From IMG/VR virus record IMGVR_UViG_3300014204_000122, positions 64,001 through 128,000 of that record: a stretch of DNA of 64,000 nt; one strand, given 5' to 3'. The position numbers and the translations under genes were made by a program. This document shows, in pieces, positions 13,773 through 60,438 of the stretch. Origin of the DNA: a virus (taxonomy: Duplodnaviria > Caudoviricetes). The notes below the pieces were generated by a model. The model worked only from the letters and a program-made list of their open reading frames with translations. It searched no databases and had not been told where the DNA came from. Within the stretch, counting starts at the first letter, position 1. Each line of letters opens with the position of its first letter.

Positions 13773-13786
13773 ATAAAAATAAAAAG

Positions 13787-13882
13787 TCTAGTGTGAGGGA
13801 TTCGAACCCTCGGATAATACTACCTGTGTACCACCGCACGCTTCCAAGACGTGCATCTTAAACCTAACTCGACCAACACTAG
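13787..13882 (-). tRNA. tRNA-Pro(UGG) with long variable arm
   Basis: CTAGTGT/ACACTAG-A; CACGT-CTTGGAA-GCGTG; about 25-nt V region; TTCGAAT T loop. Confidence 0.8.
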
Positions 13883-13964: not shown

Positions 13965-13973
13965 TCAAATTTG

Positions 13974-14058
13974 CTGATTAGGTACGACTCGAACGTACAA
14001 GCTCTTTACGAGCACTTGCTTCAAAGACAAGTGTGTTTACCAATTCCACCACTAATCA
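13974..14058 (-). tRNA. tRNA-Gln(UUG) with long variable arm
   Basis: TGATTAG/CTAATCA-G; CTTGT-CTTTGAA-GCAAG; V arm GCTC-GTAAA-GAGC. Confidence 0.8.
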
Positions 14059-16296: not shown

Positions 16297-16920
16297 TTAA
16301 TTTGGTTTTCCTACTAAAATTTTATAATGTTTTTCACCTGCAATGTCTCTTAAATACCAGCCTTCTTTTATATTAGATCCTTTAGGATTCTCTCCAACCC
16401 ATGTTACTTTCTTTCCTAATACTTGTTCTACTTCTTGTTGATTGTTTATAATAGGTACATTATATCTTTCTAGAACTTTCATTATTCTATTATCAACTTC
16501 ACAATAAAAACCTTGATTCTTTACTTTATTTGCAGCTCTTTCAAAATAAGATATAATAGAAGCTCTTGCTCCATCGTGTCCTACTCCTACTAATTTAATA
16601 CCGTGTTTAGTATTTTTTCCAAAATATAATACATCTATATCAGGATCTTGATCTATATCTACTACTTCTACATAAGAAAAATCATCATTTGATAAAATAT
16701 CATTTGTTGACTTTATATTACTATGACCTCCAATTTGAGAATATGCTATATTAATAAGTTCAAGAAATTCATCTACTAGTTCTGGGTGAGATTTTATATT
16801 GATTTTCTCCCACTCATGTTTTTTTAATCCTAATTTTGATGATTCTTTTTCTATAAGAATGACTTTGCTTTTAGAAATTTTTTCTAATTTTTCAATTAAT
16901 AATTGTAAAATAGGTTTCAT
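16297..16920 (-). CDS. protein with divergent N-terminal tag
   Basis: MKPILQLLIEKLEKISKSKVILIE. Confidence 0.7.
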   Translation of the reverse strand: MKPILQLLIEKLEKISKSKVILIEKESSKLGLKKHEWEKINIKSHPELVDEFLELINIAYSQIGGHSNIKSTNDILSNDDFSYVEVVDIDQDPDIDVLYFGKNTKHGIKLVGVGHDGARASIISYFERAANKVKNQGFYCEVDNRIMKVLERYNVPIINNQQEVEQVLGKKVTWVGENPKGSNIKEGWYLRDIAGEKHYKILVGKPN

Positions 16921-16985
16921 TTATAGCATTTTATTATAAATATAGGAAAGTAAAATATAAAAATTAAATTTTATAATATTTTTTG

Positions 16986-17068
16986 TACTCTAGGTCAGAC
17001 TCGAACTGACACGCTTGAGGGCGACGACGCTTAAAATCGTTGTGTACTACCAATTTCACCACTAGAGC
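16986..17068 (-). tRNA. tRNA-Leu(UAA)
   Basis: ACGAT-TTTAAGC-GTCGT; long V arm. Confidence 0.9.
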
Positions 17069-17073
17069 ATTTG

Positions 17074-17155
17074 TGATCTAAGAGAGATTTGAACTCTCAC
17101 TATTTACATAATTAGCTTCTTAAACTAACGTGTCTACCAATTCCACCATTAGACC
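17074..17155 (-). tRNA. tRNA-Leu(AAG)
   Basis: TTAGT-TTAAGAA-GCTAA; Leu-type D arm. Confidence 0.88.
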
Positions 17156-17163
17156 ATATTTTG

Positions 17164-17253
17164 CGGAAGATGAGGGGGTCGAACCCTCGTAACGGTTTTT
17201 AAGCGTCCTAATTGTTTAGCAAACAATCCTCTTTACCATTTGAGTAACCTTCC
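17164..17253 (-). tRNA. tRNA-Ser(GCU)
   Basis: ATTGT-TTGCTAA-ACAAT; long V arm; G73. Confidence 0.92.
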
Positions 17254-17265
17254 ATTTTATTTTTG

Positions 17266-17340
17266 TAGATTAGAAGGGAGTCGAACCCTCACTGAATAGT
17301 TTCTAAAACTATTGCCTCTTAACCATTGGGCTACTAATCC
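17266..17340 (-). tRNA. tRNA-Leu(UAG) with short variable loop
   Basis: ATAGT-TTTAGAA-ACTAT followed by a 5-nt V loop. Confidence 0.82.
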
Positions 17341-17354
17341 ATTTATATTTTTTG

Positions 17355-17445
17355 TACTCCAGGTCGGACTCGAACCGACAGTGTTTTCTCAATGAGTGTC
17401 ACCGTTTAAAAGTGATGCGTTTCAACCAAGTTTCGCCACTGGAGC
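17355..17445 (-). tRNA. tRNA-Leu(UAA)
   Basis: TCACT-TTTAAAC-GGTGA; long V arm. Confidence 0.9.
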
Positions 17446-17464
17446 ATATTTATTTTTTTATTTG

Positions 17465-17537
17465 GGTGAAAACGGGGCTCGAACCCTGTCCTAGATATTC
17501 ACAGTATCTCATGCTAACCAATAACACTATTTTCACC
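17465..17537 (-). tRNA. tRNA-His(GUG)
   Basis: G-1:C73; AGATA-CTGTGAA-TATCT. Confidence 0.9.
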
Positions 17538-17546
17538 ATATATTTG

Positions 17547-17639
17547 CGGAAGAAGTAGGATTCGAACCCACACACCCCTAAAGGCCCTCGGTTTTCAAGA
17601 CCGCCGCCGCTACCCTGCAAGCTTTCGGCTTATTCTTCC
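17547..17639 (-). tRNA. tRNA-Ser(UGA) with expanded D arm
   Basis: GCGGT-CTTGAAA-ACCGA; D arm GCCG-16nt-CGGC; G73. Confidence 0.82.
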
Positions 17640-17653
17640 ATTTTTTTATTTAG

Positions 17654-17743
17654 GGTGAAAGACGAGTCACGATCTCGCATTAAGTTGTTACACTATTCCA
17701 GAACCACAATCTGGTCGGCATCCAATTACCGGCTACTAACACC
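17654..17743 (-). tRNA. divergent tRNA-His(GUG) with long variable region
   Basis: G-1:C73; CCAGA-TTGTGGT-TCTGG; 19-nt V region; atypical D and T loops; two U.U acceptor mismatches. Confidence 0.65.
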
Positions 17744-17831
17744 ATATATTTTTAAAATAATATTATAAGCCGTACACTTTTCACAGTCGCTATGGGTTTC
17801 AACCATTTAGTACTTATAATATTATTTAAAG

Positions 17832-17915
17832 CGGAAGAAGAGAGATTCGAACTCTCGAAGCTTTTACACCCAGTTGTTTTCAAAACAATGTCCTCATGCC
17901 TACCGGATTTCTTCC
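17832..17915 (-). tRNA. tRNA-Ser(UGA), atypical D arm
   Basis: GGAAGAA/TTCTTCC-G; TTGT-TTTGAAA-ACAA; long V arm. Confidence 0.8.
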
Positions 17916-17936
17916 AAATTTATTTTTTTTACAATT

Positions 17937-17948
17937 ATTTCAATGAAC
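17937..17948 (-). promoter_or_regulatory. boxA-like antitermination element
   Basis: GTTCATTGAAAT between the terminator and the first tRNA. Confidence 0.55.
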
Positions 17949-17959
17949 TATATACAAAC

Positions 17960-18000
17960 AAAAAAAACCCTTGATCAATTTATTTAGATCAAGGGTTTTT
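17960..18000 (-). terminator. attenuator terminator of tRNA array 2
   Basis: AAAAACCCTTGATC-10nt-GATCAAGGGTTTTTTTT. Confidence 0.88.
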
Positions 18001-18026
18001 AATATTAACTTTTAAAATTATAGAAA

Positions 18027-18119
18027 TTATCTTTTCGTTAAATCATACCTTGATCCACATCTGCTACTTGATAACAGGTGTAAATGCGATAACAACGATA
18101 TGATAACTATTTTTTTCAT
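18027..18119 (-). CDS. leader peptide 2 (MKKIVIISLLSHLHLLSSSRCGSRYDLTKR)
   Basis: 30-codon ORF; codons 8-19 are exclusively Ser/Leu/His, matching array 2. Confidence 0.82.
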   Translation of the reverse strand: MKKIVIISLLSHLHLLSSSRCGSRYDLTKR

Positions 18120-18124
18120 TTTCT

Positions 18125-18227
18125 TTTAAATATTACTTTTTTATTTATTTATTATTAATATAAGAAATTATTTTTGTTTTATTTCTATTTTAATGCTCTA
18201 AAGATATATTTTTTTATAATACTAACC
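18125..18227 (-). promoter_or_regulatory. composite promoter block of tRNA array 2 (repeat copy B)
   Basis: Near-identical to 14665-14767. Confidence 0.7.
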
Positions 18228-18247
18228 AAATTATTTTAAATTATTTT

Positions 18248-18892
18248 TTATTTCATTACATATAGTTGGTATTTTCCTTTAGGAAATTCTTTAATTTCTT
18301 CAGGTGTATTAGCTGTTGCTAAAACCTTAGTTAATGTTCCAACATAGTAAGGATTATAAATTTTTGCTTTTCTATTATAAAGAGATGGAAGTTTAGTTGT
18401 ACCATTTCCATCATCAAATAAATATAAATCTCTATTATCTTTTAAATATTCTTCTGTTTTTCCTGAACCTGATAAAATAATTGTTTTATCATTTCCCACA
18501 AGTTTAAGTAAAAAATATGCTGTCTTATTTTGCACAAACTCATTATTTAATGGATTTTGCGTATCAATTTTACTATCTGAATTTAAACAAGCTATTTTTA
18601 TTCCTTTCTTTTCTTCTTCTAATATAATACTTTTATTAGATAATGTTGAAAATGCACTTTCATTTAGCACTTCAAAAACCAATATACCGTTACCACCAAA
18701 TTTTGAATTATTTCCTACTAATTGTCCCTCTTCATCAAATCCTAAATGAGACCAACCATCTTCTTCTAATTCTTTTTTAAATTCAGGATCTAATTCAACC
18801 TCTTCTTTTAAAACTACCTTCTTACCAGATATTCTTTGAATTTTTTCAGTAAGCAATTGTATTTCTAGTTGTTTTTCTTTTTCTGATTTCAT
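18248..18892 (-). CDS. tagged putative internal head protein
   Basis: N-terminal tag ending VVLKE. Confidence 0.75.
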   Translation of the reverse strand: MKSEKEKQLEIQLLTEKIQRISGKKVVLKEEVELDPEFKKELEEDGWSHLGFDEEGQLVGNNSKFGGNGILVFEVLNESAFSTLSNKSIILEEEKKGIKIACLNSDSKIDTQNPLNNEFVQNKTAYFLLKLVGNDKTIILSGSGKTEEYLKDNRDLYLFDDGNGTTKLPSLYNRKAKIYNPYYVGTLTKVLATANTPEEIKEFPKGKYQLYVMK

Positions 18893-58760: not shown

Positions 58761-58847
58761 ATGAAAAAGTGGTATACATATAGAACAATTATGACAGCCT
58801 TTAATAAAGGGGTAGAGGATTGTGGTGTACTCGATATTCGGATTTAA
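58761..58847 (+). CDS. leader peptide 3 (MKKWYTYRTIMTAFNKGVEDCGVLDIRI)
   Basis: 28-codon ORF; the first 21 codons contain exactly the 15 amino acids served by array 3. Confidence 0.85.
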   Translation: MKKWYTYRTIMTAFNKGVEDCGVLDIRI

Positions 58848-58872
58848 ACATTAATAAAGTAATTAAATATTT

Positions 58873-58906
58873 AAACCCGAATCAGTAAAAAGTTTCGGGT
58901 TTTTTT
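58873..58906 (+). terminator. attenuator terminator of tRNA array 3
   Basis: AAACCCGAA-12nt-TTCGGGTTTTTTT. Confidence 0.85.
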
Positions 58907-58929
58907 ATCCGGAAAAAAAAATAAAAAAA

Positions 58930-58941
58930 GTTCTTTGACAT
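58930..58941 (+). promoter_or_regulatory. boxA-like antitermination element
   Basis: GTTCTTTGACAT between the terminator and the first tRNA-like RNA. Confidence 0.6.
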
Positions 58942-59670: not shown

Positions 59671-59755
59671 GCACGAATAGCACGTAACTGGAAGCGTCCT
59701 TCTCTTCTAAAGAAGTGACTTTATGTTCTTGAAGGTTCGAATCCTTCTTCGTGTA
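59671..59755 (+). tRNA. tRNA-Arg(UCU) with long variable region
   Basis: CTTCT-CTTCTAA-AGAAG; 15-nt V region. Confidence 0.85.
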
Positions 59756-59782
59756 CAATTAAAATAATAGTTATTATAAAAT

Positions 59783-59871: not shown

Positions 59872-59956
59872 GTCACGTTCGACTAGCGGTCCAGGTCGCC
59901 AGGTTTTCATCCTGGTTAGAGAAATCTTAACATCGGTTCAAATCCGATACGTGATA
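59872..59956 (+). tRNA. tRNA-Glu(UUC) with long variable arm
   Basis: CCAGG-TTTTCAT-CCTGG; V arm containing AGA-GAAA-TCT. Confidence 0.85.
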
Positions 59957-59980
59957 CTGTAGATAAAATAAATAAAATAA

Positions 59981-60130: not shown

Positions 60131-60255
60131 CAATAAATTAAATAAATAAATAAAAATTAAATTATAAGTAAAATGAAAAAACAAATTAAGCAAGTCAAAC
60201 TTTAGAACAACACCTCTATCAAGGATACGTGTTGTAAAAATTAAAAAATTACAAT

Positions 60256-60335: not shown

Positions 60336-60427
60336 GCGTTTGTTCGCTTAGCCCGGTCGAAAGCACCACTCTTTTAAAGTGGATAGTTATTATAACTACA
60401 TCGTAGGTTCAAATCCTACCAGACGTA
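60336..60427 (+). tRNA. tRNA-Lys(UUU) with long variable arm
   Basis: CCACT-CTTTTAA-AGTGG; V arm TAGTTA-TTA-TAACTA. Confidence 0.85.
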
Positions 60428-60438
60428 CTTAATTATAT

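Follow-up and report, generated by a model that had tools for sequence, protein, structure and literature searches.

A candidate leader-peptide attenuator ahead of a Ser/Leu/His tRNA array in an uncultured phage, with leaders that match their own arrays across phage records

Results

Organization of the array 2 locus

The DNA analyzed here, referred to as the window, is a stretch of 64,000 nucleotides (positions 64,001 to 128,000) of the IMG/VR virus record IMGVR_UViG_3300014204_000122 (G000). This record has a length of 136.6 kb and a G+C content of 26%, is estimated to be ~63% complete, and encodes a T4-like portal and a Gp23-type major capsid protein. Array 2, one of the tRNA arrays in the window, lies on the minus strand, on which the order of elements is a gene (18892-18248), an intergenic block, a leader ORF, a terminator, a boxA-like motif, and the tRNA array. 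We refer to the elements ahead of the array as attenuator 2. The individual features are listed below in the direction of transcription.

18199-18230, minus strand: promoter-like element of the Bacteroidota type (TTTG, a spacer, then TAtcTTTA)
18151-18167, minus strand: invariant 17-mer TTTCTTATATTAATAAT, common to three leaders; 5' untranslated region or promoter
18027-18119, minus strand: leader ORF with ATG at 18119, 30 codons, and TAA at 18029-18027
18063-18098, minus strand: control run, codons 8-19, twelve consecutive Ser/Leu/His codons
18056-18082, minus strand: local hairpin in the control codons, which leaves the antiterminator strand unsequestered
18048-18056, minus strand: antiterminator strand GGATCAAGG, codons 22-24, complementary to the terminator 5' arm
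17960-18000, minus strand: intrinsic terminator with a 14-bp stem (core CCCTTGATC / GATCAAGGG), a 10-nt loop, and 8 U
17937-17948, minus strand: boxA-like element GTTCATTGAAAT, 3' of the terminator U-run
16985-17915, minus strand: tRNA array predicted to be regulated (Ser-UGA, His-GUG, Ser-UGA, His-GUG, Leu-UAA, Leu-UAG, Ser-GCU, Leu-AAG, Leu-UAA)

The three genes flanking array 2 had no relatives in protein searches, and neither PHROGs nor Pfam assigned a function to them. A DNA search against GenBank phages gave matches of tRNA size only and no close DNA relative. Relatives of G000 were found via the major capsid protein, and further phage records via exact tRNA-arm words. The closest capsid relatives, G001 and G002 (83% identity), are both fragments without the array 1/2 region, so that there is no near-identical homologue of attenuator 2 for a base-by-base alignment of compensatory changes. 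The phage occurs in landfill and wastewater samples, and no RNA run turned up among the sequencing runs that contain the stretch. Contigs of four DNA sequencing runs pointed to the probable source sample and otherwise gave dispersed matches of tRNA size; the leader showed no informative variation in them.

The first-pass annotation of the window had listed nine tRNAs of Ser, Leu, and His type only. Their order and isotypes were reproduced, and no other isotype appeared in array 2 even with relaxed ARAGORN settings; three of the nine are weak and are called with relaxed settings only. At default settings, ARAGORN found five tRNAs in the array, and a sixth reached the Rfam gathering score, which makes six solid calls. 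The sixth and the three weak tRNAs, which are possibly decayed, are the following.

17445-17355, minus strand: Leu-UAA, sixth tRNA, at the Rfam gathering score
17915-17831, minus strand: Ser-UGA, relaxed ARAGORN only; Rfam tRNA 17.9 bits
17742-17653, minus strand: His-GUG, relaxed ARAGORN only
17626-17546, minus strand: Ser-UGA, relaxed ARAGORN only; 31.8 bits to the tRNA-Sec model

The tRNA with anticodon UAG (17340-17265, minus strand), which reads CUA and CUG, is 75-76 nt long with discriminator base A and a short variable loop, and is thus without the long arm typical of bacterial tRNA-Leu. In bacteria, long variable arms are found in the tRNAs for Ser, Leu, and Tyr, and tRNA-His needs an extra 5' G. 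Array 2 groups Ser with Leu, the array of another phage record (G006, L043 4957-7720) adds Tyr, and both include His; this grouping may reflect common processing rather than common attack. We additionally observed overlong tRNAs of normally short types, namely Pro (97 nt), Gln (86 nt), His (90 nt), Arg (86 nt), Glu (86 nt), and Lys (93 nt), at 13786-13882, 13973-14058, 17653-17742, 59671-59756, 59872-59957, and 60336-60428. Their lengths suggest insertions or introns.

The promoter-like element sits in a block of ~125 nt that is identical at 109 of 125 positions to the block upstream of attenuator 1, and the two sequences diverge at the ATG. This promoter/5' untranslated region block is common to three leaders and occurs nowhere else in the record. 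The combined promoter pattern is present in three copies in the 136.6 kb, each ahead of the leader of a tRNA array; its exact form had no IMG/VR match outside the G000 record, and a consensus scanner reported no sigma-70 promoter above chance. Three exact copies of the 17-mer TTTCTTATATTAATAAT, all upstream of leaders, were found in the window, and this sequence may be an alternative promoter. A near copy with 2 mismatches lies at 16933-16949 (minus strand), 13 nt before the ATG of the gene after array 2, which is why the 17-mer may be a promoter element that is also used elsewhere in the genome.

A leader ORF with twelve consecutive Ser, Leu, and His codons

A leader at 18119-18027 had been proposed from the sequence, with codons 8-19 reading TCG TTG TTA TCG CAT TTA CAC CTG TTA TCA AGT AGC, and this matched the minus strand exactly. 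Its ATG is the first start after a stop in the reading frame. Ser, Leu, and His together account for 16.9% of the residues in the long ORFs of G000, and with the proteome composition of G000 a run of at least twelve of them in a 29-residue peptide has a probability of P = 8e-9. The six-frame translation of the entire record contains no second Ser/Leu/His run of twelve, and among 391 short ORFs the attenuator 2 leader has the longest such run, the runner-up having 9.

Under conservative wobble rules, the anticodons of the array can read 12 of the 12 control codons. Five of the twelve are rare (TCG twice, TTG, CTG, and AGC), each with a share of at most 10% among its synonyms, an excess that has P = 0.003 given the peptide. 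This excess fits the remark in the first-pass annotation that the run samples the two Ser boxes, the two Leu boxes, and the two His codons. Codons 4-7 (Ile, Val, Ile, Ile) fall within the permissive window defined below, and their tRNAs belong to other arrays, so that the specificity of sensing would not be absolute.

Predicted mutually exclusive terminator and antiterminator structures

The 5' arm CCCTTGATC of the terminator spans 17995-17987, the 3' arm 17976-17968, and the U-run 17967-17960. The hairpin folds with -18.6 kcal/mol (z = -5.5). A consensus promoter/terminator scanner missed it, the 10-nt loop exceeding the loop limit of the scanner. The proposed pairing of GGATCAAGG (codons 22-24, 18056-18048) with the terminator 5' arm is supported both by complementarity and by folding. 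Bases 18055-18048 pair with 17994-17987, and an exact 8-nt complement between leader and 5' arm was matched in 23 of 5000 shuffles. In the transcript as it exists before the terminator 3' arm is made, GAUCAAGG pairs with CCUUGAUC at -20 kcal/mol (z = -3.4). The local hairpin in the control codons may act as an RNA polymerase pause hairpin.

Folding of the full-length RNA to its minimum free energy always favors the terminator. As this is expected of a kinetic switch, truncated transcripts were folded instead, with a 30-nt ribosome footprint masked at each A-site position. The antiterminator persisted for A-site positions at codons 3-18 and disappeared from codon 19 onward. The end of the control run (codons 8-19) hence coincides with the point at which a stalled ribosome ceases to be permissive. 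In four other units described below, the last permissive codons were 16, 13, 24, and 14, compared to control-run ends at codons 17, 14-15, 24, and 15, respectively.

Folding revealed no protector (1:2) helix in attenuator 2, and the ribosome-free RNA folds to the antiterminator, that is, the read-through form. Untranslated transcripts would consequently read through. A protector helix is typical of attenuators of the trp type, while three-segment attenuators do not require one. The leader runs on for 6 codons beyond the antiterminator strand before its stop codon, which is 31 nt upstream of the hairpin. This qualifies the earlier statement that a ribosome finishing the leader covers GGATCAAGG. 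With the simple footprint mask, the antiterminator indeed re-forms when the ribosome is at the stop codon; we infer that this reflects a limit of the mask model, because the helix would need to close around a ribosome-bound loop. Blocking of the antiterminator probably relies on a ribosome anywhere between GGATCAAGG and the stop codon, via steric exclusion.

Leaders match their own arrays in G000 and in other phages

An attenuator of this kind predicts that leaders change along with the arrays that they precede. This holds for arrays 1 and 3 of the window and for other phages. The layout of attenuator 2 recurs in attenuators 1 and 3:

14649-14491, minus strand: attenuator 1, an Ile/Gln/Pro/Arg run before Pro (three), Gln (two), Ile-UAU, and Arg-ACG
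58761-58909, plus strand: attenuator 3, 22 codons before ~20 tRNAs, covering the 15 amino acids that these tRNAs serve

Attenuator 1 has a protector helix according to folding, which would lead to termination when the RNA is untranslated. The antiterminator strand of attenuator 3 overlaps its stop codon.

The same layout was found in more than 20 units of other uncultured phages, in which the leader matches the amino-acid set of its own array. Records that bear out this rule are G006, G005, G008, and more than 10 further contigs. The closest counterpart found for attenuator 2 is that of G006 (L043 4780-4881), whose kinship to G000 is not established. Its leader has 14 consecutive Leu/Ser/His/Tyr codons, a 10-nt leader segment matches its terminator, and its array encodes Tyr (three), Ser-UGA, His (two), Ser-GCU, Leu-UAA, Leu-UAG, and Leu-CAA; Tyr has thus been added to both leader and array. 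The Tyr codons matching the Tyr tRNAs are the most direct case of covariation for this type of attenuator. In G005, the capsid protein of which is 61% identical, the run PITIVEDIIAVDEP stands before Pro, Glu, Asp, Pro, Ala, Ile, Val, and further tRNAs, and a second leader with QQSSQSQQ, encoded by CAA and AGT codons only, precedes Gln (two) and Ser-GCU. G008, a complete phage of 321 kb, contains four units whose leaders track four different amino-acid sets:

G008, first set: Pro/His/Gln
G008, second set: Asp/Glu/Leu/Val/Ala/Trp/Met
G008, third set: Tyr/Lys(/Arg)
G008, fourth set: Cys/Ile/Ser/Asn/Phe/Gly/Thr/Arg/Met

A scan with tRNA-His-arm words added a dozen more Pro/His/Gln units as well as units of other composition, for example one for Trp/Ser/Ile/Lys/His/Phe whose run has 16 codons, and a unit on a metagenome contig has a run of 23.

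Among 12 leader/array pairs, the own array scored best for 11 of the 12 leaders, and the observed match was reached in 0 of 200,000 permutations. The true pairing was the best of all 6 within G000 and the best of all 24 within G008. The antiterminator strand varies from unit to unit and fits the terminator of its own unit, with a mean exact run of 7.75 nt compared to 4.7 nt in cross-comparisons (12 units). Stop codon and hairpin are separated by 23-40 nt in nearly all units accepted as real; the two gaps outside this range in the scan, of 3 and 56 nt, come from alternative ORFs whose terminators had already been attributed to a different leader. Most leaders begin with Met-Lys. A genome-wide scan of G000 found such units only before tRNA arrays, together with one weak false match. 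The unit detector found no unit in G007 and G009, although both carry large tRNA arrays. Overall, the comparison of leaders and arrays is the decisive evidence for reading these predicted elements as attenuators.

Several further observations were made in the course of this comparison. In G002 (L005 7489-7920), the counterpart of array 3 is preceded by two consecutive leader-terminator units; this counterpart includes Ser-GCU, and both leaders hold AGC/AGT Ser codons, which are absent from attenuator 3. Array 3 itself contains an ORF of 10 codons, rich in those for Lys, Ile, and Val, together with a hairpin without U-run (60175-60255, plus strand); they precede tRNAs for Lys (two), Val, Asp, and Ile, and may be an internal mini-sensor or due to chance. 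In G005 (L011 10486-10718), a Ser/Leu/Gln leader with a terminator is followed by a decayed Leu-like tRNA with a Leu-type 5' half and a broken acceptor and anticodon stem, to which no anticodon can be assigned; leader and tRNA-like sequence may represent a decaying unit. tRNAs with the anticodon CUA (amber-suppressor type) were seen at L038 ~19544 (G008), L042 ~18684 (G009), and L027 ~3210, which hints at TAG recoding in those phage records.

A boxA-like element and the predicted host

The motif GTTC[AT]TTGA.AT has two copies in the record, right after the terminators of attenuators 2 and 3, and is also present in units of G002, G006, and G008. A consensus 17-mer is carried by attenuator 3, with the copy located at 58930, and by G002 and G006; unit 2 of G008 matches its first 12 nt only. 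This 17-mer has at least 120 exact genomic matches in a one-genome-per-species collection, mostly in Bacteroidota, including Pedobacter, Mucilaginibacter, Chitinophaga, and Niabella. All 5 loci checked place it in the 16S-23S rrn spacer, downstream of the spacer tRNAs and 80-200 nt upstream of the 23S gene, the position at which a spacer boxA is expected from rrn antitermination. The boxA-like designation given to the sequence after the U-run in the first-pass annotation therefore stands for the consensus form, which is identical to Bacteroidota rrn spacers over 17 nt, whereas the copy of attenuator 2 deviates from it at 3 positions (14 of 17 matching, 11 of the first 12). The site probably loads host Nus antitermination factors, and the rrn match suggests that these would make read-through polymerases resistant to termination.

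TAnnTTT[GA] boxes are located upstream of every primary unit, and Shine-Dalgarno motifs are nearly absent (5 of 83 long ORFs). Alongside the boxA match, both features argue that the host of this phage is probably of the Bacteroidota type.

Discussion

Proposed mechanism

All structural elements of an attenuator are present at the locus, and control codons and tRNAs match at the level of codons; the attenuator interpretation of the first-pass annotation is thereby supported. We consider it quite likely, judging from the sequence, that the element is a transcription attenuator of the ribosome-mediated (leader-peptide) kind, which responds to slow decoding of cognate codons by turning on the tRNA array. 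Transcription would start within the conserved block that precedes 18119, with translation of the 30-codon leader taking place as the RNA emerges. When Ser, Leu, and His codons are decoded fast, the ribosome would be between GGATCAAGG and the stop codon while the polymerase makes the terminator, the hairpin would form, and transcription would end at 17967-17960. When decoding is slow at any of the twelve control codons, due to too little charged tRNA-Ser, tRNA-Leu, or tRNA-His, the ribosome would stall upstream; GGATCAAGG would then be free to pair with the terminator 5' arm once this is made, no terminator would form, and the polymerase would continue. It would pass the boxA-like site, at which Nus factors could be loaded, and then transcribe the nine Ser/Leu/His tRNA genes. 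Such a loop would amount to negative feedback on the supply of just those tRNAs that the array encodes.

We infer leader translation, its timing, induction, and the physiological trigger from anatomy, statistics, and covariation. The trigger could be cleavage of host tRNAs by defence nucleases, host shut-off, a mismatch in codon usage, or starvation. Since more tRNA would not relieve amino-acid starvation, we assume that a useful trigger must be a shortage of tRNA. A more specific and tentative proposal, which we regard as possible but rather unlikely, is that the leaders are array-specific sensors of damage to the tRNA pool and that each tRNA set is an inducible counter-defence. If this were true, a set would be switched on only upon cleavage or depletion of the corresponding host tRNAs, such as by the anticodon nucleases of anti-phage systems, the hijacking of host rrn antitermination through boxA would ensure full-length array transcripts, and the different ways in which phages partition the 20 amino acids would record which tRNA sets their hosts attack together.

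Alternative explanations

The alternative that fares best keeps the mechanism and differs in the trigger: the element would sense decoding as a timer or economy device, in a role other than answering a defence-driven depletion of tRNAs. For example, tRNA synthesis might be kept low early and released when late translation or host shut-off drains the pools of charged tRNA. That the three arrays jointly cover all 20 amino acids, as would suit general supply rather than one nuclease target, and that a single promoter block is common to the three leaders both speak for this possibility. The separate sensing of tRNA sets that differ between phages suggests instead that set-specific shortages matter. 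On balance, we take a timer seriously without expecting it to be the correct account.

A translation-independent RNA switch, in which the codon run binds tRNAs directly as a T-box specifier does, would fit a regulated product that is itself tRNA and a run complementary to the anticodons of the array. A search of 16900-18260 with E values up to 10 returned no T-box. An ATG and a stop codon always flank the runs in the same frame, most leaders share their Met-Lys start, and the stop codon is 23-40 nt from the hairpin in nearly all units accepted as real, all of which matter only if a ribosome reads the leader and hence count against such a switch. To our knowledge, there is no precedent for a tRNA-binding platform made up of 8 to 28 different codons in a row. 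We therefore regard direct binding of tRNAs as very improbable.

It is hardly conceivable that the hairpin merely terminates the upstream gene (18892-18248), that the ORF is noise, and that the array has its own promoter: AT-rich DNA is full of short ORFs and the A- and U-runs that flank the terminator on both sides resemble a bidirectional terminator, but the run has the low probability given above, the match recurs in more than 20 units of several phage lineages, a conserved promoter block separates upstream gene and leader, and a scan of the interval between the terminator and the first tRNA gave no promoter-like motif. Equally far-fetched is a functional micropeptide, such as a small membrane peptide with codon content as a by-product, for although the N-terminus (Met-Lys-Lys and a hydrophobic start) resembles a signal or anchor, the leaders of different units resemble each other only in Met-Lys and in having a composition that tracks the array of each.

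Relation to known systems

The leader-peptide attenuator that we favor has counterparts among multivalent enterobacterial leaders, namely those of ilvGMEDA, with Ile, Leu, and Val codons, and thr, with Thr and Ile codons. These are closest in logic, as they combine a short translated leader, control codons for several amino acids, an intrinsic terminator, and an exclusive antiterminator set by stalling. They regulate biosynthetic enzymes, whereas the genes regulated here would be tRNAs and are phage-borne. Unlike them, attenuator 2 consists of three RNA segments, has no protector helix, and would function in a host that probably lacks Shine-Dalgarno sites. In hisL and leuL (7 His and 4 Leu codons, respectively), consecutive cognate codons likewise form a stall sensor just upstream of the antiterminator strand; each responds to one amino acid, whereas Ser, Leu, and His are mixed here, with both Ser and Leu boxes and an excess of rare codons. 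The Rfam model His_leader (RF00514) matched attenuator 2 with 18.7 bits against a threshold of 49 (E = 3.1), which is below gathering; at the sequence level, attenuator 2 is not a member of any curated leader family.

The pheM leader of E. coli (pheST, phenylalanyl-tRNA synthetase) shares with attenuator 2 that attenuation acts on a component of the translation apparatus, but its product is a synthetase protein, its sensor responds to a single amino acid, and the gene is cellular, whereas the product here would be tRNA. T-box riboswitches also control a terminator and an antiterminator in answer to the state of a specific tRNA; they bind uncharged tRNA directly and need no ribosome, and no T-box features were found here. 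In its consensus form, the boxA-like element resembles rrn boxA (NusB/NusE), as this 17-mer matches Bacteroidota rrn operons, in which it is found at the position expected of a spacer boxA; the copy of attenuator 2 has 3 mismatches to it. In contrast to boxA in rRNA operons, it is predicted from sequence behind an attenuator, at the head of a phage tRNA array. Phage-encoded tRNAs are known to counter tRNA-cleaving defences, for example PARIS AriB (PMC12409363) and retron Eco2 (PMC12916289). The tRNA genes in those cases are likewise able to replace host tRNAs; the element described here would in addition make tRNA expression conditional and specific to each set.

A full-text literature search found no published account of leader-peptide control of tRNA genes, nor of a sensor acting on those of phages. 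What is new is the target and the feedback: the regulated tRNAs read the control codons, and the element is phage-borne and repeated with different amino-acid sets.

Biological significance

Textbook leader-peptide attenuation controls amino-acid biosynthesis and, in pheST, a synthetase. The same logic appears here to regulate tRNA genes directly, and the supply of tRNA would thereby be under a simple, closed feedback control. This question comes at an apt moment, since tRNA cleavage is now known to be the way in which many bacterial immune systems act (e.g. PMC12409363, PMC12916289, PMC13462974). As compact, portable, and set-specific reporters of decoding speed, the candidate leaders make it directly testable, and with their help the tRNAs of a common transcription unit could be predicted from sequence alone. 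The boxA match further points to Bacteroidota as the probable hosts of a clade of uncultured large phages. Overall, these elements are the first candidate mechanism by which large phages could time the expression of their tRNA arrays.
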